Part shown: positions 3,938-63,300 of the stretch, piece by piece
Position numbering within the stretch: position 1 is the first letter of the stretch
Layout of the letters: each line of letters starts with the position of its first letter
Assembly: GCA_965287045.1 (NCBI GenBank)
Contig: OZ336872.1
Location: 32,550,001-32,614,000 of the forward strand
Direction of reading: 5' to 3'
Source of the DNA: Carcharhinus amblyrhynchos
Taxonomy: Eukaryota
Length of the DNA stretch: 64,000 bases
Translations under genes and position numbers: made by a program
Notes under the pieces: generated by a model
Databases searched by the model: none
Told to the model about the DNA's origin: nothing
The model's input: the letters and a program-made list of their open reading frames with translations, nothing else

Positions 3938-4141
3938 ATGACGTGGAAATGCCAGCGCTGAACTGGGATGGACACAGTAAGAAATCTCACAACACCATGT
4001 TAAAGTCCAACAGATTTACTCAAGATCACAAGCCTTCTGAGCACTGCTCCTTCATCAGGTGAGTTATCTGAGGGAGGAGCAGAGTTCGAAAGTTCATGGT
4101 TCCTGTTCAACTTTAACCTGGTGTTGTGAGACTTCTTACTG
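3938..4141. mobile_element. Penelope-like pseudo-LTR fold-back insertion with decayed hammerhead motifs (older copy)
   Basis: Inverted arms agtaagaaatctcacaacacc...ggtgttgtgagacttcttact; the minus strand reads ctcac CTGATGA a ggagc agt gctca GAAG gc tt gtga; homologous to 36824 and 60101. Confidence 0.75.
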
Positions 4142-4150
4142 AAATGATGG

Positions 4151-5971
4151 ATGACGAATGTTGGACCCTTGGAGGATGAGAGGGGGGATTTAGCGGTGGG
4201 AGATGAAGAAATGGCTGAGGCTTTAAATAAGTTTTTTGCCTTTGTCTTCACGGAGGAGGACACGAATAGTTTGCCGGATCTTAAAGATAGAAGATGGTAG
4301 GAGTTGAGGGCCTGAATGTGATCACTGTCACTAGAGATGTAGTGCTTGATAGACTAATGGGACTGAAGGTGGACTAGTCCCCAGGACCGGATGGAATGCA
4401 TCCCAGGCTTCTGAAAGAAATGGCAGAGGTGATAGTGGATGCCTTAGTAATTATTTACCAAAATTCGCTGGATTCCGGGGAAGTGCTGGAAGATTGGAAA
4501 ACGGCTAATGTTACGCCGCTGTTTAAAAAAGGTAGCAGACAAAAGGCAGGGAATGATAGGCCAGTTAGTTTAACGTCTGTAGTTGGAAAAATGCTAGAAT
4601 CCGTCATCAAAGAAGAAATAGTGAGGCAACTAGAAAAGAATGGTTTGATCAAGCAGACGCAGCACGGATTCGTTAAGGGGAAGTCGTGTTTGACGAATTT
4701 ATTGGATTTCTATGAGGATGTGACTAGCGCGGTAGACAGAGGGGAACAGGTGGATGTGGTGTTTTTAGATTTCCAAAAGGCGTTTGATAAGGTGCCTCAT
4801 AAAAGGTTGCTACAGAAGGTTAGGGTACACGGAGTTGGGGGTAAGGTGTTAGTGTGGATAGAGGATTGGCTGTCTAATAGGAGGCAGAGAGTTGGTATCA
4901 ATAGGTGCTATTCTAATTGGCGGTTGGTGACCAGTGGAGTGCTGCAGGGATCGGTGCTGGGGCCTCAGCTATTTACCATTTATATAGATGATCTGGAGGA
5001 GGGGGCTGAGTGTAGGGTGACGAAATTTGCTGATGACATGAAGATGAGTGAAAAAGCAAACTGCGTGGAGGGTGTGGAAAGTCTGCAGAGGGATCTGGAT
5101 AGGCCGAGCGAGTGGGCAAGGACCTGGCAGATGGAGTATAATGTTAGCAAGTGTGAGGTTATCCACTTTGGCAGAAATAATAGTAGGAGGGATTATTATT
5201 TAAAAAGCGAAAAGCTGCAGCATGCTACGGTGCAGAGGGACCTGGAGGTCCTTGTGCACGAGTTGCAAAAACCCAGTCTGCAGGTGCAGCAGGTGATCAA
5301 GAAGGCGAATGAAACGTTGGCCTTTATAGTGAGGGGGTTAGAATATAAAAGTAGGGAGGTCTTGCTGCAACTGTACAGGGCACTGGTGAGGCCGCAGCTG
5401 GAGTACTGTGTGCAGTTTTGGTCGCCGCACTTGCAGAAGGATATATTGGCCTTGGAGGGAGTGCAGAGGAGGTTCACCAGGCTGATACCAGCGATGAGCG
5501 GGTTGGACTATGAAGAGAGACTAAATAGACTGGGTCCGTACTCGTTGGAGTTTAGAAGGATGAGGGGGGATCTTATAGAGACATATAAGATAATGAAGGG
5601 GATGGATAGGATAGAGGTAGAGAGATTCTTCCTGCTTAGAAAGGATAGCAGGACTCGAGGGCACAGCCTCAAGATAAGGAGGAGGGGGCGCAGTTTAGAT
5701 CGGAGTTGAGGAGGAACTTCTTCACTCAAAGGGTGGTGAATCTCTGGAATTCTCTGCCCATTGAAGTGGTGAAGGCTACCTCGCTAAATATATTTAAGTC
5801 ATGGGTAGATAGGTTTTTGATAGACAAGGGAATGAAGGGTTATGGGGAGAGAGCAGGAAAGTGGAACTGATCCACTTCAGATCAGCCATGACCTTATTGA
5901 ATGGCGGGGCAGGCTCAAAGGGCTAGATGGCCTACTCCTGCTCTTATTTCTTATATTCTTATGTTCTTATG
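4151..5971 (+). mobile_element. CR1 LINE, 5'-truncated, relatively young
   Basis: Starts in ORF2 (NVGPLEDERGDLAVGDEEMAEALNKFFAFVFT), runs through the RT domain to the 3' tail ggcctactcctgctc and (ttcttat)n repeats. Confidence 0.95.
4396..5709 (+). pseudogene. CR1 ORF2 reverse transcriptase fragment (437 aa open stretch)
   Basis: RT motifs DWKTANVTPLFKKG, RPVSLTS, QHGF, FLDFQKAFDKVPH, SGVLQGSVLGP, KFADD; disrupted upstream (stop/frameshift) and frameshifted near 5680. Confidence 0.92.
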
Positions 5972-12145: not shown

Positions 12146-12335
12146 TGGAGATGCTGGTGTTGGACTGGGGTGGACATAATAAGAAGTCTCACCCCAGTCC
12201 ACCCCAATGCCCACTGCAATCCAACACTGGCATCTCCATCTCATGGCTACCACTGACACCACAGACCGTAGGCTCAAAGTGGAAAGGATCTCCAAGAAGA
12301 TCACATACATCAACATAACCTTGTGTTGTGAGACT
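12146..12335. mobile_element. Rearranged Penelope-like insertion containing the ORF start
   Basis: 18-bp direct repeat tctcagttagacattaga (12128-12145 / 12336-12353); repeat pieces in both orientations; ATG at 12243 reads MATTDTTDRRLKVERISKKITYIN. Confidence 0.75.
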
Positions 12336-14299
12336 TCTCAGTTAGACATTAGAAAAGAAAGGGATATAATTCCATTGTTGGCCATCTCCTGCTCATCAAA
12401 AAATAATTTATGAAGTAAAATTGAATTGGGTGAGGGAATCTCAGCTTTAAGTCCAAACTGGACTGTTATCATTGAGTGTATTTCATATGCTCCTTCAGCC
12501 AGGATTTGAGTGAATAGCAGAAAAAAATGGCAAAACCATGGGTGAGTTTTATTGAAGTGTGCTTCTCACTCATCGATTACAGTCTAGCTCTGACTACAAC
12601 AGCAGACAAGCTTGTAAAGTAGATTCATTCCTGCTTCCTTCAGCTGAAAGATCAAGTGCATCAACAGGGGAAAACAACAACATACTAAAAAGAGGAAGGA
12701 AAATTGGGTAGGCAGTAGAAGAACAAAAAGAAAATTGACAACTGCAACATTTAGAATAGAAAGGAATACATTTTGATTTTAATACATTTGAGTCTAAATC
12801 TGGGAAAGCTTCTGAAATAAGAAATGTGAACTATAAATAAAGGGTTGTTAAAAATCCTGGCATTGACTTTCTCCTATAACCCACAGAGCAGAAGCAAACC
12901 TTCTAATGAGCAAATGACTGACAGAGGCACAGTGCTAGTTTTGATAATACAAGGTTGTGTAAAAGATCAAACAGAGTGACTATTGTGCTGTTTGAGTAGA
13001 TTATCTCTACAGGTGAGCTAGTCTACCCTACTGTGAATACTGCTGGCCATATGAAGGGGGAATAATTGTAGGGCAGAACCTAGTAAATCTGCTGTTCCCA
13101 TTTAAATTATAATGCTTCACAGCAATCCAGGTTTAAGTACTTCATTTTGAGGAAACAAGCAGTTATTTTTTTCTATCAAAGTCACAGGGTCTAATGGGAA
13201 TAAAACTCTTTTATGATACAAGTTCAGTGAATGACATATACTGTAATTGCTTGCTCAAACTAGTAAAATGAAATCCTTTGAAAAAGCGAGGATCCATTAA
13301 GTATTAAAATTGCTCTTAAGAGCAGATCACCCTGTATCATCCTTGCTGCTTGGTTCTTGTGAATTTCTGACATAAAGGGGATGTACATTAACTCCTCAAT
13401 GGCTGTTATGCTAGATATTTGAACTTTCTAAAGTATGTTATTCAAATTCAGCCACAGTTTTGTACATGGACCAATGTGTACTTTTCCTGACAGCTCGTGA
13501 GTTTTGATTAACAATGCCCAAGTAAATCCACAATGATTTCTGTTGATTACTGCCTGTTTGCTGGAATAGATTATACAATTAGAATTTACTTTAACAAATG
13601 AGCAGGAGCACAATAGATGCTATTCTATTGCCTTCTTCCTGTAATGACTACAATCACTTTGTACAAAATTGTAAAGAGGTTCCTTGAAAAGTGCTTTAAT
13701 CACTTTTGTGAACTTGGAAAGAGGAGCAATAGTTCACTTCCAAACCCTTGAAATGTTACCAATATCTGTGCAGTTTTATAGATGTGTACTTTGATTGAGC
13801 AATCGTCTAATTTAAACTCATTAAAATATATACAGACTGTTTCAGAATAATTGGGAGCTCTTCAAAATGCTGACAAAGTGGCTTGCCAAACTTTTCCCCC
13901 TGCAAACTGCTCAAAGTAATAGAACGTATTGCTTCCTCAAGAGATATTTAATAAGCCATGGAGCATCTATTGCAATAGGTTGAATTTTCAGACCCCCTCT
14001 CACTCACATATTTGAAAGTGGGGGGCATGCGGGAGGGAGTGGTGGTGATGGTCATAAATTAAAACAGATGGCCTCCTCACCGCCTTCCTGCCCATCCCCA
14101 ATATGTCTTCAATATTGTGATAGTCAGGGAAGGTGTCAGGTTTTAAAGCTAAGGATTTTGGCCAGTGGGTCAGGGAATACAGCAGCCCATAAAATCAAAC
14201 CCCATGTAATACTTCAAGGAATGACGCTTTATATATAACAAAAATCACCATTGGTTCAAATCTCAAAACTTACTTTCAATTGTGGGGCTCATGGGTTCA

Positions 14300-35975: not shown

Positions 35976-36823
35976 AATGCTCCATTTTTCCACCAGCTCT
36001 TAATTATCACAATACCAATAAAACAGGTAAACAGACTGATGCACAGTAATTGTATCTCACTGAGAGCAAAATCTAGGCACTGGAAGAAGTATTGCATAAA
36101 TAAATTTGTACCGACATCACATATATAGGGGCAATTCACCTAGCCCACTATGCTACTCCAGCAGCACAACGCGTTGGGAGACATCAGCTGTTTCACTGGC
36201 TTCCCACTGGGCGCCACAATCTCCGTATATCTCTGAGCTATGAGTTCCAGAGTAATCAGCTCCATGCCAGAAATTGGCACAAAGCCGCTTATCAAATGGA
36301 AATCACAATTTAAAATTAATTGACGGGCCTGGGACTGAAGTCTCCGGGCCCGCTAGCATCTGGCCCCCTCCCACCCACCAGGAGTAGTTCACTACAGCAG
36401 GATTTATAACTGCTCCCCCTAGTGGGGAACAGGCAACCGATCCCGCTGGAGTGAAGGGAGGCTAATGAGGCCACCCCAGGAAGTTGGGAGGTAAGAGGGG
36501 TGCCCCTGGGACAGCACCACGTAGCACTGCCCAAGAGGCACCTTGGCACGGCTCACCAGGCAATGTCAAGGGCTAGAGCCACAGGGAGGTGGGACCTACT
36601 GGGGGGCGGGGGGGAGGGGTCCTGCTACCACTCTGTACAGGGATTGCAGGCAAATGGAGGGAGGACAGATATTAAGGCTGGCCACCTGTGTCCGTGAGGG
36701 GAGGAGAGGGTGGATCGGGACTGCCAGAGAATCATTAGGGGTGGGGGAGGGAAGTTGGAGATCAGAGCTGGTCAGGGGTCGGGGGGAGGGGAAAGTCAGG
36801 GCTTGTTTGGGGAAGTCCTGGAG

Positions 36824-37059
36824 TAAGAAGTCTCACAACACCAGGATAAAGTCCAACAAATTTATTTGATAATAAACCCACAAGCTTTCGGGGTTTGCCC
36901 CTTCGTCAGGTGAGTCTCACCTGACGAAGGGGCAAACCCCGAAAGCTTGCAGGTTTACTATCAAATAAACTTGTTGAATAAACTTGTTGGACTTTAGCCT
37001 GGTGTTATGAGACTTCTTACTGTGTTTACCCCAGTCCAACACTGGCATCTCCACATCAT
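36824..37059. mobile_element. Penelope-like fold-back insertion with two opposed hammerhead motifs
   Basis: TSD gaagtcctggag (36812-36823 / 37060-37071); palindrome centred on 36915. Confidence 0.9.
36876..36914 (-). ncRNA. Minimal type I hammerhead ribozyme motif
   Basis: Minus strand: ctcac CUGACGA a gggg-caaa-cccc GAAA gc UU guggg; stem I ctcac/gtggg. The mirror copy on + at 36916-36952 has a weakened stem I. Confidence 0.8.
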
Positions 37060-37461
37060 GAAGTCCTGGAGGCCAGGAATCAAGGTGTGGGGAGTTCACA
37101 AGCCCGGCAATGGGGAGTTGTGGGGATGGCCAGCAATTGGGAGGCCACGCTGAAAGATCGGCGCATGTGTAGTGACCCGGTCAGCGCTATGCTGGCGGCC
37201 TCTCGGGCAGGAATAGGCCCCACCCTCAGATTTCCGGAGGGAATCACATGAGGGCACTCTGTGATTCACACAGCGTTGGAGATTCACTCTGGAAATCACA
37301 CAGGAGAAAGCTAGCAGCATTTACTCCCATTTTCTCGCAAATTAGGAACTTTGAATCTTTTTGGGAGAATCCCAGCCATAGTCTTCCAATATAGTTCCTG
37401 GGTGCAAATTTATTTATTTCAAGCAGAAATTGCAATCATGTGGAAGCAGACATCCACTTAC

Positions 37462-39008
37462 ACCAATCTGAGGTCCCTATCTGCTTCACGAAGACAACCT
37501 TCATTCCTGTGTCAAAAAGCCAGGCAGCATGCCTTAATGACTATTTTCCAGTGGCTCTCTGACATCAATCATTATGAAGTGCTTAGAAAGATTAGTCATG
37601 ACACAAATCAATTCTTGCCTCCCAGATTGCCTGGATCCACGACAGTTCGCCTGTCGCCACAACAGGTTCACAGCAGACGCCATCTCTCTACCCTCAACCC
37701 TGCAGCATGTAGATAACAAAGTCACTTACGTCAGGCTCATATTTAATGACTGCAGTTCAGCCTTCAACACCATTATTCCATCAAAACATATCTCCAAACT
37801 CCGTGGCCAGGGGCTCAGCTTCTCCTTATGCAACTGTATCCTAGACTTCCTAACCCACAGACTGCAATCAGTAAGGATAGGGAAAAACACCTCCTCCATG
37901 ATCATTCTCAACACCTGTGCCCCACAAGGCTGTGTCCTCAGCCCCTCACTATACTTCTTATAGACCCATGACTGTGTGGCCACATTCCCCTCCAACGCGA
38001 TCTTCATGTTTGCTTATGACACCACTGTGGTGAGTCGGATCTTAAACAATGATGAGATGGAGTACAGGAAAGAGATAGAGGATCTGGTGAAATGGAAGGA
38101 CAACAATAATCTCTTCCTCAATACCAACAATGTGAAGGAGATAGTCATCAACTTCAGGAAATGTAGTGGAAGACATGCCCCTGTCTACATCGTAAAAAGT
38201 CTGACAACACCAGGTTTAAGTCCAACCAATTTATTTGATAGTAAACTCACTAGCTTTCCTAGTGAGCTAGTGAGTTTACTATCAAATAAATCGGTTGGAC
38301 TTAAACCTGGTGCTGTCAGACTTTTTACTGTGTTTACCCCAGTCCAACACCGGCATATCCACATCCTGTCTACATCAACAGGGATGAAGCGGAAACTGTC
38401 CAGAATTTCAAGTTCCTCAGTATTCAGATCACCAACAACCTTTCCTGGTCCTCCACGCCAACACTATAGTTAAGTAAGCCCACCAGCACCTCTACTTTCT
38501 CAGATGGCTAAGGAAATTTGGCGTGTCTGCTATGATTCCCACCAACGTCTACAGATGCACCACAGAAAGTATTCTTTCTGCTTGTGTCACAGCTTGGTAT
38601 GGCTCCTGCTCTGTCTAAGACTGCAAGAAACGTGAACAAAGTCCAGTCCATCACATAACCAGCTCCCATCCACTGATGCTGTCTACACTTCCTCTGGCCT
38701 CGGAAAAGCATCCAGCATAATTAAGGACCCCACGCACCTCAGACATACTCTCTTTCGTCGGGAAAAAGATACAAAAGTCTGACTTCATGTACCAACCGAA
38801 CAGTTTCTCCTCTGCTGCCATCAGACTTTTGAATGGACCTACCTTGTATTAAATTGGTCTTTCTCTACATTCCAGCTATGAATGTAATACAACATTCTGC
38901 ACTCTCTCCTTTCCTTCTCCATGTACAGTACGCTTTGTCTGCAAAGCATGCAAGAAACAATACTTTTCCCTGTATACTAATACATGTGACAATAATAAAT
39001 CAAATCAA
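37462..39008 (+). mobile_element. Rex1/Babar-clade LINE, 5'-truncated and decayed
   Basis: MKCLERLVMTQINSCLPDCLDP, NRFTADAIS, YVRLIFNDCSSAFNTIIP, APQGCVLSPSL, FMFAYDTTVV; tail catgtgacaataataaatcaaatcaa. Confidence 0.9.
38192..38364. mobile_element. Penelope-like fold-back insertion lacking the hammerhead core
   Basis: TSD cctgtctacatc (38180-38191 / 38365-38376); arms meet at tagctttc|ctagtgagctagtgag. Confidence 0.9.
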
Positions 39009-45249: not shown

Positions 45250-46320
45250 ACACAGAAACAAGAGTCTGCCATTTAACCTCAGCCTCAAGCCTGTTCCACC
45301 ATTCAAGATACCATGGCCTAGAGGTAACCTCATTCCATATCCCTGCTTTTGGCCTATAATCCCTTAGTACCTATAGCTAATAAAAATCTAGTCATCACGG
45401 TTTTTAAATGTACAACTAATTTTGCAAATATTGGCATCTGTGGAAAACTGCTACCGGCCAGTATGTGAAGCAGCACTTAGTCTCATTCTTGAAAAGTCTG
45501 ATCCTAATTTTTATATCATCATCAATCCTGCACTCCCAAACCACTGGAAATAATTTCTCCCAATCTACCCTAACCTTTCTCTTAATATTTTGAATATATA
45601 GATCAAAATACCCCTTCAGCTTCTAAATTCAAGGGAATGCAGCCCCAGTTTGTTTAATCGCTCCTTAAAGCTCACCTCTTTGATTCAAGATACCAGTCTA
45701 ATAAATGTAAGTTGTACTCTCCCAAGGTCAGTGTATCCTTCCTGAGGAATGGTGACCAGAACTGATCACAGTGTTCTAGTTATGGCCAAACTACTGCTTA
45801 GTATATGTAAAATGTGCCTTCTCCCCTGTGTATTCTAGTCCTCGTAAAAAGTCTGACAACACCAGGTTTTAGTCCAACCGATTTATTTGATAGTAAACTC
45901 ACAAGCTTTCGAGGGGACTCCCTCTTCGTCAGGTCACACATCCACATCATATTCTAGTCCTCTACATATAAAGGATAAAGGATGGCACTCCATTAGCCTT
46001 TTTGATCATTTTCTGTACCTGCTCGTGACATTTTAATGATCTGTGAATCTGTGCCCTTGTACCCCATTCTAGTTTTTTACCATACAGAAAAAAAAACTAT
46101 TCTTTAGGGCCAAGATGACAGCACATTTCCCAACAATCAAATTAATTTGTCAGTTTTTCCCATTCACTTAATTTATTGCTATCATTTTCTAATCTTATAT
46201 TTCCACTGCATATATTACCACCAATCTTAATGCCATTGGCAAATTTGGATATGTGGCTTAGTTGTTAATTAATACAGTGAATAATTGAGGTCTCAATACA
46301 GATCCTTCTGGGATACCATG
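45250..46320 (-). mobile_element. Old CR1 3' fragment
   Basis: Antisense tail (gcctgttccaccattcaa) and RT C-terminal remnants (gaccagaactgatcacagtg). Confidence 0.7.
45844..45949 (-). mobile_element. Penelope-like insertion with one hammerhead core and a ~10-bp opposite arm
   Basis: TSD tattctagtcctc (45831-45843 / 45950-45962); minus strand ac CTGACGA a gaggg agtc ccctc GAAA gc tt gtgag. Confidence 0.88.
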
Positions 46321-47864: not shown

Positions 47865-48631
47865 TGGCCTCTGCACATACAGGGATTGTCTATGTACTGC
47901 AGCTTGATGACAGAGGTTGTGGTGATCTTAGTTCTGGCCTGGGGTTGACAGAGGTAGAATATTTTCCCGCTTGTCCAATGGTTTAGCTCCATGCCAGCGG
48001 GGAGCTTCAGGGTGATGGTTTGAGGTAGCGTTGCAAGGCAGATGGAGAAGAGCTATGTTTCATTCCAGTTTGCACATGTATTGGGTCTGTGGTAGTTCCA
48101 TTGGTGAGGATCACATCAAAAAAGCCATCCAACAGCTGAAAAACAACAAGGCACGGATGGAAAGCCTGCTGGAATATTAAAATGTGGCAGAGCGGCACTC
48201 TTGACAAGAATCCATAACTTCATCACCCTTGTCTGGAAGGAAGAGAGCATGCCAAGAGATCTCAGAGATGCCTTGATCGTGACCTTCAGAAAAAATGAGA
48301 CAGGTCCAGCTGTGGAAATTACAGAGAGATTTCTCTGCTCTGCACCATGGGAAAGGTCACGGCAAGAATCCTTATCAGCTGCCTCATCCCTGTGACTGAG
48401 TCCAGCTTCCACCCATCAAGAAGCACAATGGGCATGATCTTCAGCGTGCAACACATACAGGAAAAGTGCAGGAAGCAGCATCAACCTCCACACATGCTCT
48501 TCTTTGATCTCTCAAAAGCCTTCGACTCTGTCAAGTGTGAGGAATTGTGGAAAATCCTCCTCAAATTCGGTTGCCTGCAGAACGTTGGCTGCATTCTCCG
48601 CCTGCTCCACAATGACATGCAAGCCGGTGAT
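47865..48631. mobile_element. RTE-clade LINE RT fragment with an internal inversion
   Basis: + strand 48115-48631: IKKAIQQLKNNKA...WKEESMPRDLRDALIV...STMGMIFSVQHIQEKC...FFDLSKAFDSV...LLHNDMQA; - strand from 48114: VILTNGTTTDPIHVQTG. Confidence 0.85.
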
Positions 48632-48967
48632 TTAATCAGCATGGTTGGAATGAATTACAACAGAATGTTTTTTAAAAAAGTGAGCCCTCTGGATATTAAA
48701 ACACTGAGTCCTCCGTTATTCCCCATTGAAAAAGCTGTAGCAAACTCTGAGCTATTACTGATCAATATCTTATTTGATAGAACTATTTTCTTTCATGTTC
48801 TTGTGACCTACTTTAAGTGAATATATTTGAACAGCTTTAAGGGGTATTCACAGAAAACAGCAAGACAGGTGGCGGGGGGAGGTCAGAAAAATCCCTGTGA
48901 TGTCTGTTGATAGCTTCAAATCAAGCAATTGTGAAAATGGGATAGTAGGGCTGGATTTCCCAAAAGA

Positions 48968-57793: not shown

Positions 57794-58668
57794 GGGCCCA
57801 ACTTTACCATTGCATTGTGCCCATTTTTGGGTGTGAAAACTTGGTAAAGTCATGCATGAGACCAATAGCATGATCCGCACTCCAGCTTCTGAAGAGGTAA
57901 GTTCAGAGCTTCCAGTGGCTCTCTAGCTCCAATCGGTGGTGGGAGAGGAGGGAAGGGCGGGGAGGCGGGCCAGATCTATATCTCTAGTGGTGTTGGGGGG
58001 TGGTGAGGGGGTGGAGGGAGGCTGGTCAGATGTATCTCTGCTGGTGGAGGGCTGGGGGGGTGGAGAAAAGGGCCAGATCATTTTCTGGTGGGGGGGTGGG
58101 ATACCAATGGTGGTGGAGGGGGGGAGAGAGAGGAGGTGGGTCAGATGTATCTCTGGTGGTGGGGTGTGGGGGGGAGGGGGGGAAGAGGGCCACATCATTT
58201 TCTGGTGAGGGGGAGGGAAGCAGATGGTTCTCTGGTGGGGGCGGGGGAGTGGGCCAGATGATTCTCTAGTGGGGAGAGGGGATGGGGGCGGTGAGGAAGG
58301 AGGCCCAACCATTCTCTGGTAGGGGGAAGGGGGAGGCCTGATCATTCTTTGGTGGTGGGGGGAGGGGAGGAGGATGAGGCCAGATCATTCTCTGGTTGGG
58401 GGGGTGGGGGGGAGCGGGGATGGAGGGGGGGGGGGGCAGGAGCAAAGCATGATCATTCTCTGGTGGGGGGGGGGGGGGGGGGGGGGAAGGAGGGAAGAGG
58501 GGGGAGGGCCAGAGCAGTGTTTTGGGCACTATAAGCCCTGCCCATAGCGCAATTCAGACTCGTGATTTTTTTCCAGCCTGAGTGCATGTGGGGGTGCACA
58601 GGTTTTCAAGTCAGATCTGAATTGCACCCAGATTCAGCACTTAGAATCAAAATAGTAAAATTGCCCCC
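57794..58668. mobile_element. Non-autonomous DNA transposon (Harbinger-like) with an internal G-rich tandem array
   Basis: tct|gggcccaactttacc...gtaaaattgccccc|tct; removing it restores CR1 accattactctctgtttcc. Confidence 0.7.
57940..58520 (+). repeat. G-rich minisatellite, unit ~ggccagatcattctctggt(g)n
   Basis: More than ten imperfect ~35-50 bp units separated by long G-runs. Confidence 0.85.
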
Positions 58669-59749
58669 TCTGTTTCCTATTATTCAGCCAATTTTGTATC
58701 CATTTCCCTTCTATTCCAAGAGCTACAAATTTTCTTGTGAGTCTGTTGTGCAGCACTGTGTCAAATGCCTTTTGGAAGCCAATGTCATCAACAGCATTGC
58801 ACTTATGAGCCCTCTGTGTTAACCTCTTCAAAAAACTCCAGCAAATCAGTTAAACGTGGTTTTCCCTTAAGAAAAGTATGCTGGCTGTCTTTCATTAACC
58901 CATATTTGTCCATGTGACAATTCATTCTGTCCTGAACAACAGTTTCTGGAAGTTTGCCCACCATCAAAGTTAAATTGACTGGCCTTTAGTTGCTGGGCTT
59001 ATCCTTGCACCGTTCTTTTGAACCAGAATGTAACATTTATAATTTTCCAGTCTTTTGGCACAACCCCTGAATGTAAGGAAGACTGAAAAATTAATGTCCA
59101 ATGCCGCTTCAATTTCAACTCTTACCTCTCTCCTTCATCATCTCACGCCATCCTAATGTCTTGTTAAACTTTGGTACATACAGCCTTTCTAATCCTTCTC
59201 AATTTTAAACCCTTCTCTACTAAATTCCTCCTCTTTCACCATGACCTAGGTAGCATCTTTTTCCTTAGTAAAGGCAGATGAATTCAGTTAATATCTCAGC
59301 CATGCCCCCCATGTATAAATACCCTTTTTGATCCCGAATCAGGTTTACTCCTACTTCTGCCACCCTTGGGATTTCTCATTATGTTGGCGGCCAATCTCTT
59401 TTCGTATCTCCTCTTGCTTTTTCACCTCTTTTCGAACTTTCTGTATTCAGATTCACAATTGTATTTTCTACCTGATGATTGTCATAGACTTTCTATTTCT
59501 TCTTTATCTTAATTTCTATCTCCTCGTCATCCAGTGAGCTCTATATTTGTTTGCCCTATCTTTCCCTTTACCTTGATTGTACACAAACCATTTGTTTCTT
59601 TGAGGGTAGCCTATTGTTCAGCCAGCGTTTTCCTGCCAACCTTTCACTCCAATTTATTCAGCCCAGGTCAATTTTTATTGGCTTTCTCCCAGTTAGTTAC
59701 CCTTATCCTAGATTGGTCATTGTCCTTTTCTATAGTCATTCTAATGACA

Positions 59750-59870
59750 CTGGTTTCATTAGACTTTTAATTCCAGACTTTTATTGAATTCAAATCTGCT
59801 GTGGTGGGATTCAAACCCTTGTCCCCAGCGCATTAGTCCAGTGACAATACCACTATGCCACTACCTCCCC
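59750..59870 (-). mobile_element. Head fragment of the tRNA-SINE (15703 family)
   Basis: ttttaattccaga...gtgggattcaaaccc...tccagtgacaatacca matches 15905-16020. Confidence 0.7.
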
Positions 59871-60194
59871 TGAGTGCAGCCCTAGCCAAGTCCATGGTGC
59901 CACAGGTGGCTCAGCTGCACAGGGCAGTACAAGAAAGTCAAGAAGAAAATTCATTGAGCAGAACTTTCTGTAAGGCATAGATTGCTGTAATACTTAGTTT
60001 TTAAAAATTTCTGGTTGTATATTTCACTTAAATCCTATTTAAGTTTAGTCTTTGTTGTTAAGACGTTATAACAATGGTTACTCCTGGCCTCCTTGATATT
60101 CATGATGTGGGTATGCCGGCGTTGGACTGGCGTAAACACAGTAAAAAGTCTGACAACACCAGGTTTTAGTCCAACCTATTTATTTGATAATATT

Positions 60195-60234
60195 CTCACA
60201 AGCTTTCGAGGGGTTACCCTCTTCGTCAGGTGAA
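60195..60234 (-). ncRNA. Minimal type I hammerhead ribozyme motif (mirror copy)
   Basis: Exact reverse complement of 60262-60301. Confidence 0.85.
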
Positions 60235-60261
60235 TGGAGAGTTCTGGCCCAGAACTCTCCA

Positions 60262-60301
60262 TTCACCTGACGAAGAGGGTAACCCCTCGAAAGCTTGTGA
60301 G
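60262..60301 (+). ncRNA. Minimal type I hammerhead ribozyme motif
   Basis: ttcac CUGACGA(60267-60273) a gaggg-taac-ccctc GAAA(60289-60292) gc UU gugag; stem I tcac/gtga; palindromic stem III AAGCUU. Confidence 0.85.
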
Positions 60302-63300
60302 AATATTATCAAATAAATAGGTTGGACTAAAACCTGGTGTTGTCAGACTTTTTACTCTCCTTGATATTGTCAGGAGTGCCGTAATATAAGTGCGACAATG
60401 TTAGAAAAAGTAGAGCCGATGTGGCAAGCACACTGCTGTCAGTGGCTGCCAATTTTCTGAGCACAGACCGGCCAAAAGCTCAGCCCACCCAATCAGAACA
60501 ATGGTCTTCCCCATTCATCAAAACATTCTTCAATTTCCTACTTTCAAAACAACTATTCATGTTTGCCTATTGATACAAGTGCTGTGAAACTTGTTCCACA
60601 GTGAATGGGAGGGAGAGATTCCAGAGCCAAGAGCTCCAGAGCATTGAAACTGCTCTGTAACGTAAGAGAGTACAATCATAATTACAGCACATTATTCAAA
60701 CCAGTCCATCTGCAATTTGATGTGTTCCTACCTCCCTGCTGATTTCTCCCTCACTCCACTATAATGCTTCCCTCAATTTCTGGTCCCAAATTCTGTGCAA
60801 CTTCTTTCATCCTTTTATGTCTTTTAATGAAACTACTGACCATTTAATTTTCATCTGTCTCTTTTTACATTTTGATAAAATCACTACTCATCCATGAATC
60901 CAATTTATGTTTTAATTTTGAATTACCACCTCAATCATTCTCTCTACTTATACATCTAAGGTAAGCTTTCCCCTATTAACCATCATGGACTTCAAATTTC
61001 TAAATTTGACCAAATATCTCTTATTGGTAGCATCAAGTGGCCATGGAAATAAAAAGAAAAATTGGAAATGCAGTAAAAACATAATGTGCTTGAAACGCAT
61101 ACAGGTTCAATTTCAAAGTAAGCAGTTGGAGCTTCACATCTTAGCTCTATAGAAAACTCTTCAGTAAAACAAATCATATCAAATACTTCAACTCTACTCA
61201 TGTATTTTGTGTAGATCACTGTCTCCTGAGGATCAACTTTTAAAGGGACGTACATTTTGCCTTTCACTTCACCAATCCATTTGAGTAAAGGGGAGAAAAA
61301 ACACAAGTACTTATAAGAGCTGAATCCAAAGCTATCAAAATAAATGTGGCTCTGCAGAAGAAACTTGCCAATGAACTCTTGTAGTGCTGTTTGTGTCGAA
61401 AGACAGCAGCTTATAATGATGCTGCACAGTTGTCCTTGCATTATGAGCCAAGAAAACTGGGCTACATGCAAATATCTCACTCTGATCTTAGGCACCAGAT
61501 TGCTAGGAAATATGGTGAATCACCTCACAATGAACCGAACAGAATTCCACTTCCATAAGTGACATTGATTTTGGCAAGGCACTTCTGCAAAAGTGCGCAC
61601 AAAAAAAAACTGGCTCAATTTGAGCGTAGAATATGAAGTGAATCAAGCTTGCTGAATGACCTTTTATTTTTCCTACTTTCTTGCAGTCTTGTAATCACAT
61701 ATCCATTTTTTCATCCATATTTTGGGTTTCAAGGGTACTTTAGACCAGGGTATGAATTACTTCCAGTTGAATTTTTGAAAGGATGCGATGAAGTGGGCCT
61801 TCTCCCATTTTGTGATGGACAATATATCCATGCAGATCATTTTAGTTTCTTAATGGGAAAAAAATGTGGTTTTTTTGATAAAACTCAAAAACATACTGTT
61901 ATTGCTGGATTGTGAGATGCTTAATTTCAACCCTTTACACACAATTTAAGTACTGAAATTGTTTAATTGTTTTCTTCTTTATTGTCATGTGATATTTTAG
62001 GCTTAATCAAAATCATTGCAATATTGCTTAATTATTAACAGCTCTAAGGAACTCTTGAGAAGTGCAGTCCATTAAGGTAATCAAAAATTATTTGACAATT
62101 AATTACAACTGGATCAATATAACTCTGATATATCATTCAAGATAGATTTCTAATTGCTGTCTTTCCACCCAGTAGCTTGTTATAGTAGGATACCAATAAG
62201 CTGTAAGAGCATTAAGTATGACCTTATAATGTATTCAGTATTTCCAGCACGAGCAACAAAATAAGCACAGTCATTTGAAACCCAGACCAATAGTTACTTT
62301 ACCCTAAGAAATTGTAGTGTCATTATTCTCAATTACAGGGCTTGGTCTGGAAAAAGCATATATTGTGTTCAGACTTGACCTTTCCTATGACAAGTCTAGC
62401 AGATGAACAAACGTTGAATGTTTCATGAATTGAATTCAGAAAGGCATTCAATTTTCCATCTCCCAAATATTAGCATATTTTAACATCTTAGTACATGCAA
62501 ATTGGTCATACTTTACATTTTCACTGAATAAATTACACTTGTGGTATAATTTTCTTCTATGGCATTAATCTAATTGTTTAGTTACAATATCTGTTACAAA
62601 ACAGTCTTGCATGATCAATCCCAGTTTTCAGTTGCGCAATCTGTCACTCATTTATTGGGCAACACTGGTTGTTGGTTTTAAATACCCTATGACATTCGCA
62701 GTGGGCAATACTTAGATTAGATGATTAAACCATAAAAGAAAATAGTCAAATTAAATTTCAGAATAGAAGTGCCCAAATCTCTCAGGGCAGAGTTACACAG
62801 TTTTACTCATTCTGTCACACATTGTGTATAGAAGCAACTTAATCACAATCCTGCAATTATTCCATGATGATATCTGTCTTGTGCAGGAGATCTGAAATTG
62901 AGACCTTCAAATCCAGTATGTGGTCAAGTTTTACAATAATCTGATAACTCCCCAGACGATTTACAGTCCACCTGAAAGTGACTATACGTCTCCTTAAAGT
63001 TCAACTGCTTACTGGTAGCAGTACGAAATATGCCTAGATGGAAAGCATTTCAACTTAATTTGCAAACAAGAGAAAACTAAACTGACCACCACAGACATAC
63101 GTGGGCAACGGTTCTCCTGAATACGATCTAAGTGCTGCCACCAGCGGGGAAATTGGTGCATTTTCCACTGGTGCTCTGTAACTCTACCCTGAGAAATTTG
63201 AGCACTTTATTCTGAAATTTAATTTAACTATTTTCTTTTATGGTCTAATTATCCAATCTAATTATTGTCCACTGCTGTTGGAGCGCCAATGAGGAGGCAT

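Follow-up and report, generated by a model that had tools for sequence, protein, structure and literature searches.

In the accessible portions of the published accounts, an inverted copy together with a tail on one side only is the textbook insertion of EN+ Penelope-like elements (PLEs) (PMC3846280; PMC8557442), Penelope of D. virilis included (PMC2377424). The origin of the inverted pLTR has been sought either in self-priming on an antisense template (PMC3846280) or in resolution by the endonuclease (PMC8557442), as the available text of these reports has it. For PAc (Poseidon of Anolis carolinensis), the available part of PMC11167929 describes in vitro reactions in which both target strands are cut and extended, RT is initiated at two sites that delimit the tail, and cleavage by the ribozyme is dispensable; there the two start sites stand without a link to inverted insertions, and the later steps of integration are left unvalidated. 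The minimal hammerheads (min-HHRs) of metazoan PLEs cleave weakly in vitro and are thought to work as dimers, and pairs on opposite strands, 100–700 bp apart, are already known from Schistosoma, according to the accessible text of PMC4209133; PMC6155905 and PMC6765202, likewise available in part, served as background. The inverted pLTR with its tail, the minimal hammerheads and the two RT start sites are already published. A literature search conducted mostly without subscription papers, figures and supplements returned no double- or twin-priming model of PLE integration, and the genomic case for twin priming over fold-back may be the new part of what follows.

The DNA analysed here, referred to as the window, is a stretch of 64,000 nt from the shark Carcharhinus amblyrhynchos (contig OZ336872.1), and it contains at 60101–60356 an insert of 256 nt with the organization expected of an EN+ PLE, an inverted 5′-truncated copy with a 30–40-nt tail on one end. 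It differs from the known cases in that both arms measure only about 110–145 nt, hence its look of a solo palindrome. A first-pass annotation made from the letters alone had described a perfect palindrome between exact target-site duplications (TSDs), with a hammerhead core in each arm and a following AAUAAA, and all of these features were recovered. The arms at 60140–60247 and 60249–60356 are 108 nt each, 100% complementary and separated by 1 nt; the bounding direct repeats of 12 bp occupy 60089–60100 and 60357–60368, with no 13th matching base and no further occurrence of the 12-mer within the window; the CUGACGA..GAAA cores lie at 60267–60292 on the plus strand and 60229–60204 on the minus strand; and the hexamer is at 60312–60317. 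Beyond the palindrome, on one side only, stand 39 nt (60101–60139, minus strand) that constitute the PLE ‘tail’; the same sequence enters the ORF in the tandem copy at locus L119, comparison with which places the parent's start codon at 60103–60101 (minus strand), the very end of the tail. The window copy itself has no ORF.

Relative to this ATG, inverted-repeat searching and comparison with the parent and with the ends of family members place the tail-bearing arm of the pLTR (60140–60248, minus strand) at −145 to −37, so that with its tail it runs from about −145 to +2, and the inverted tail-less arm (60249–60356, plus strand) at −144 to −37. The two meet head to head at 60248–60249, beside a GGCC of the parent sequence where other junctions also fall, through a blunt joint or a 1-nt overlap that makes an untemplated base unnecessary. 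A cap-derived extra G at the centre was considered and rejected, since in 16 of the 30 loci that show three Gs here a longer arm merely has a point variant. Both arms comprise CUGACGA, an additional A, a stem II of 5 bp, GAAA, GC, UU and a stem I of 4 bp. Motif, folding and family comparison identify the putative minimal type I hammerhead of the tail-bearing arm at 60196–60233 (minus strand), with a 4-bp stem I, the extra A after the core, a 5-bp stem II and the triplet CUU, the palindromic AGCU standing where stem III would be; its predicted cut follows 60200. The corresponding motif of the inverted arm, at 60263–60300 (plus strand), would be cut after 60296, the position that we take to follow from standard hammerhead numbering. 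The two ends of the insert fall 59 and 98 nt downstream from the predicted cut.

In three further organisms (X5, X6 and X7) contigs join 60088 or 60091 directly to 60357 or 60360 and so present the empty site, with a single copy of the 12-mer and 4/435, 13/660 and 12/649 differing bases in the flanks. The insertion is therefore likely younger than those splits, in keeping with the first-pass annotation's view of it as recent; the identity of its arms is weaker support, being found also in 6 of 40 other sampled pairs. For X4, a second sample of the same study, contigs span the two junctions by 25 and 23 letters, short of the bridging threshold of 31.

With its pLTR and 39-nt tail the insert represents the 3′ end of an RT- and GIY-YIG-encoding PLE of about 3.0 kb. 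The arms at L033 reach further upstream, and a search with that extension retrieved copies that enter the end of an ORF bearing a CX4CxxC linker and a GIY-YIG motif; in the translations of L044, L050, L051 and L123 this linker is seen between RT and EN. The tandem loci L119 and L123 have a period of about 3.02 kb and a tail that ends in the ATG of the ORF, the copies at both being interrupted by frameshifts or stops; with L134 they provide the tandem or partially tandem pLTRs. At L119 (2352–6954) the two tandem pLTRs differ in stem II type and the inverted arm resembles the distal one. The parent ORF, taken from other genomic copies, matches RVT_1 and, above cut-off, the GIY-YIG domain PF01541; its nearest proteins are from sharks (84–91% identity), followed by turtles and invertebrates, while a PDB search gave no relative of the parent protein. 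Because the ORF combines matches to RVT_1 and GIY-YIG with a CX4CxxC linker, the parent is likely an EN+ PLE of Neptune/Nematis type, a placement made from the linker, CX2–5CxxC between RT and EN being a criterion shared by Neptune and Nematis in the accessible text of PMC8557442. The same linker, and an ATG situated at the end of the tail rather than in stem II, distinguish it from PAc as described in the available part of PMC11167929.

Across the 2.92-Gb genome, exact matches number 18,672 for a 24-mer taken from the arm and 26,252 for a 29-mer further downstream, the reversed control giving 0 in both cases; with more than 18,000 arms the family far exceeds in copy number the known EN+ PLEs with which it was compared, as far as their published descriptions were accessible. 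The genome-wide copies and the RT and GIY-YIG parent that the first-pass annotation had proposed to look for were thus both found. As to what the insert might be, that annotation had offered a retrozyme-like mobile unit or an abortive product of PLE integration; the latter stood, longer copies continuing from the same end into the GIY-YIG and RT ORF, and the former did not, as set out below.

The window also holds five older relatives of the insert. Those at 36822–37060, 38192–38368, 3938–4141 and 12146–12336 belong to related PLE subfamilies and are two-armed insertions with other centres, older, smaller or decayed, the first of them retaining both hammerhead motifs and the second embedded in a fragment of another retrotransposon. 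At 45844–45950 a tail-less arm of 91 nt faces a second arm of only about 13–16 nt of tail-end sequence between 12-bp repeats, an extreme inequality of arms. A Pfam scan of the 59 window ORFs of at least 95 aa, which small exons would escape, gave only RT fragments of other repeats (RVT_1; 4378–5706, 37541–38470 and 48299–48817), and a G-rich degenerate minisatellite with a unit of about 50–68 nt lies at 57996–58494.

The architecture of the family was read from 71 loci that take in the first 100 exact hits of one contig (C1, first ~12 Mb), with 7 duplicate loci excluded (a further duplicate pair, L115/L133, may persist), and from a second sample of 100 arms anchored downstream, 10 of which were excluded as duplicates. 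In the first sample each of the 52 head-to-head pairs combines a tail end with a tail-less one, the latter at −30 to −39 in 45 of the 52. Arm lengths form a continuum, with 5′ extents from 30 nt to more than 3 kb, longer than a whole unit. In the 46 simple pairs it is the tail-less arm that extends more than 20 nt further upstream in 15 cases and the tail arm in 10, so that each can carry sequence absent from its partner; in the 21 that agree within 20 nt, a hand count gives the tail-less arm as the longer in 14 and the tail arm in 5. The 5′ ends of the two arms are coupled: 24 of 46 pairs have them no more than 25 nt apart, where permutation gives 5.9, and for arms that reach beyond −200 the figures are 7 of 19 observed and 1.5 expected. 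Maximal TSDs, in 30 clean cases among 38 examined, are 12–16 nt long, with none of 9–11, which compares with 8–10 bp for rotifer PLEs in the accessible reports; in these 30 cases the mean overlap of target and element sequence is 1.7 nt at one end and 1.5 nt at the other, the shuffled value being 0.36. Single arms show a TSD in 6 of 21 instances, 4 of these tail-less, and in the other 15 no TSD was seen within the range searched. At L121 (5099–8001)/L229 and at L246, arms without and with a tail stand head to head about 2.9–3.0 kb apart with unrelated sequence between them, for which a later insertion and RNA captured between two cDNAs are possible readings.

The joints favour microhomology. 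Within a few bases of the window's centre there are 232 places with a joint, and of the 50 listed 25 use the self-complementary GGCC, 10 have a 4-nt overlap and 4 are like that of the window (hand count); near the ribozyme cut site there are 231, with AGCU used in 26 of the 50 listed (hand count). None of these latter 50 has both arms ending at the cut, and ribozyme-cut RNA as the template was rejected for lack of any sign of it among them. In the second sample arms terminate at their 5′ ends most often between −121 and −150, where the arms of the window copy end: 23 of the 72 arms at risk stop there, or 0.0106 per nt against 0.0022 over the next 100 nt. A defined SINE-like RNA of 150 nt was rejected as a separate element, having 70 matches where the read-through form has 18,351; 5′ ends are in excess at −121 to −150 all the same.

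Taken with the parent and the exact TSD, these observations make it probable that the insert is a 5′-truncated two-armed insertion of the ~3.0-kb PLE that arose by twin priming. The element protein would cut the target strands 12–13 nt apart, and both 3′ ends would be extended on element RNA, each aided by 1–3 nt of pairing. One cDNA would start at the tail end, in the ATG (60101–60139, minus strand), and the other about 37 nt upstream, at 60356 in the window copy; both would stop after some 110–145 nt, likely at the 5′ end of one shared RNA, possibly a transcript that starts within the pLTR. The cDNA ends would then be joined head to head by microhomology end-joining, with gap filling producing the TSD. 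The plus strand reads the left TSD followed by the complement of element RNA from the tail end, and the minus strand the right TSD followed by the complement of element RNA from −37, which is the product expected from dual priming at a 12-nt staggered cut and joining of the cDNAs. As the two cDNAs have the same polarity, neither templates the other and either may be the longer, as observed. Such a reaction would have in common with PAc, as characterized in the accessible part of PMC11167929, two RT start sites bounding the tail, cutting and extension of both strands, a hammerhead in the pLTR and uncleaved RNA as the main template. Against the general picture of twin priming, the priming site in that account is non-homologous to the target, whereas the shark junctions overlap by 1–3 nt. 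A further difference from PAc is that the TSD columns show no clear ATT preference.

The alternative that survives best, though we regard it as unlikely, is a fold-back, in which a single cDNA begun at the tail end would loop round on itself, or change over to its own strand, and serve as its own template until about 37 nt before its origin; the arms would become unequal through sequence lost later from the centre. Such self-priming has been proposed for the palindromes of rotifer PLEs (PMC3846280, in the text available), and it would account for the near-identity of the arms of one insertion (a median divergence of 1.2%, against 5.2% to other copies, the partner being the closer in 39 of 41) and for the coupling of their 5′ ends, both of which also count in favour of twin priming; inequality of the arms could also be explained by fold-back with subsequent deletions at the palindrome centre. 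The tail-less arm, which under fold-back should not exceed the tail arm, is the longer in 15 of the 46 pairs and in 14 of the 21 near-symmetric ones, and tail-less single arms with TSDs occur. Loop-less palindromic joints, which can form from two annealing ends but are sterically impossible for an intramolecular hairpin, are the commonest class. The fixed stop at −37 would moreover go unexplained, and it matches the second RT start measured in a related PLE (PMC11167929, accessible part).

Twin priming might instead proceed on two RNAs held by a protein dimer and perhaps paired through the palindromic AGCU of their hammerheads, which is rather less probable still. The anole protein is predicted to be dimeric (PMC11167929) and dimers are regarded as the working form of minimal hammerheads (PMC4209133), in the available text of both, and a few pairs (L111, L137 and L153) differ in stem II type between their arms, so that a single pLTR as template is not the rule. 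Most pairs, however, match in stem II despite the coexistence of at least 16 recurrent types, their 5′ ends are coupled, and mismatched pairs could be obtained from two unlike pLTRs of one tandem transcript, as at L119. Twin priming on one shared template is on these grounds preferred, but the choice of one RNA over two is held with less certainty than twin priming itself. Since 25 of the 46 pairs differ by more than 20 nt at their 5′ ends, run-off from one RNA end is not general, and the excess at −121 to −150 could reflect RT pausing or microhomology instead of a start site, the AT-rich box lying no more than some 15–30 nt upstream. A-to-I editing was also considered as proof of one template. 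At L033 (4455–5025) three head-to-head segments form a near-perfect palindrome of 570 bp in which both arms depart from most copies by the same 8 A>G changes, possibly from an A-to-I-edited template; the argument was dropped because 4 of the 8 mirrored changes (L033/L199) are at CpG, 4 being non-CpG, and because A>G does not dominate the private mirrored changes of 98 insertions (7/33, non-significant).

That the palindrome of 256 nt stands on its own as a non-autonomous unit, akin to a retrozyme or MITE and copied whole with the aid of its ribozyme, is very improbable and already largely refuted: although about 20 loci align to nearly all 256 nt at 90–98% and joints close to that of the window are numerous, its own centre recurs at only 11 places against the 18,672 arms, the 9 of these that were read comprise 6 stem II types and both orientations of the centre, so that the 256-mer is not itself amplifying and a MITE- or SINE-like unit amplified whole is rejected with it, arm lengths are continuous up to full length, the ends ignore the cut site, and there is no tandem array, each strand's single sense ribozyme being paired to its own complement. 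With metazoan non-LTR retrozymes (PMC7229834; bioRxiv 10.64898/2026.07.22.740005) the insert shares the absence of an ORF, a type I hammerhead and PLE-derived sequence; those, in the accessible descriptions, are head-to-tail tandem repeats with ribozyme-excised, circularised units, in contrast to the single head-to-head shark insert. At L034 (3968–5405) a palindromic stump is tripled with a 604-bp period inside a minisatellite, a tandem amplification of DNA that might be taken for a retrozyme array.

The hammerhead would be cargo of the pLTR inherited from the parent. The putative ribozyme motif on each arm is of the minimal type I; it agrees with the min-HHRs of PMC4209133, so far as that account is accessible, in its type, 4-bp stem I, extra base between 9 and 10.1, G10.1–C11.1 pair, palindromic 15.2–16.2 without stem III and highly variable stem II, and may differ from them in its majority triplet. 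In 139 arms, which were selected by motif score and hence biased towards conservation, CUGANGA is found in 121 (CUGACGA in 111) and GAAA in 124, the departures being mostly of CpG type, and the triplet is CUU in 109, CUA in 24 and CUC in 1, so that the CUU which the first-pass annotation had thought a poor site is that of the family majority. The 16 recurrent stem II types are all paired (3–5 bp), with a mean of 3.9 pairs against 3.2 when the halves are swapped, a value reached in 0 of 2000 swaps. Core and stem II pairing are thus kept across genomic copies, one of the checks put forward at the outset; another, a search with Rfam hammerhead models, was negative, no such model matching at E≤10 over 59000–61500, where only miRNA-precursor hairpin models matched, below their gathering scores. 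This miss is expected because the motif has no stem III, but it is still a miss. Folding of single-arm RNA recovers stems I and II at a stability no greater than that of shuffled sequences (z −0.4 to −1.0), while the whole insert is predicted to fold as one hairpin (−207.7 kcal/mol, z −33.6), as had been proposed for read-through transcripts. The one sense ribozyme of such a transcript would be paired to its own complement and is predicted not to cleave; buried in this way, the copy is likely dead on arrival. Conservation of the core would reflect selection on active parent elements, not on the window copy.

The insert is an ordinary by-product of an abundant shark PLE and not a new kind of mobile ribozyme, and as one among thousands it carries little weight by itself. 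A young high-copy family with exact TSDs amounts to a sizeable natural data set, one that speaks for double priming and allows the model to be tested directly. We lean, by a small margin, towards reading the two-armed insertions as an in vivo record of symmetric double priming, with a stagger of 12–13 nt, RT starts 37 nt apart on one uncleaved RNA, 1–3 nt of target pairing and end-joining of the cDNAs, the tiny palindromes being run-offs from a start of the element mRNA in the pLTR. If this is true, the TSD, the inverted pLTR and the presence of a tail on one side only would all follow from a single double-priming reaction. Many two-armed insertions also imply many perfect inverted repeats, and hence possible sources of dsRNA, in shark genomes.
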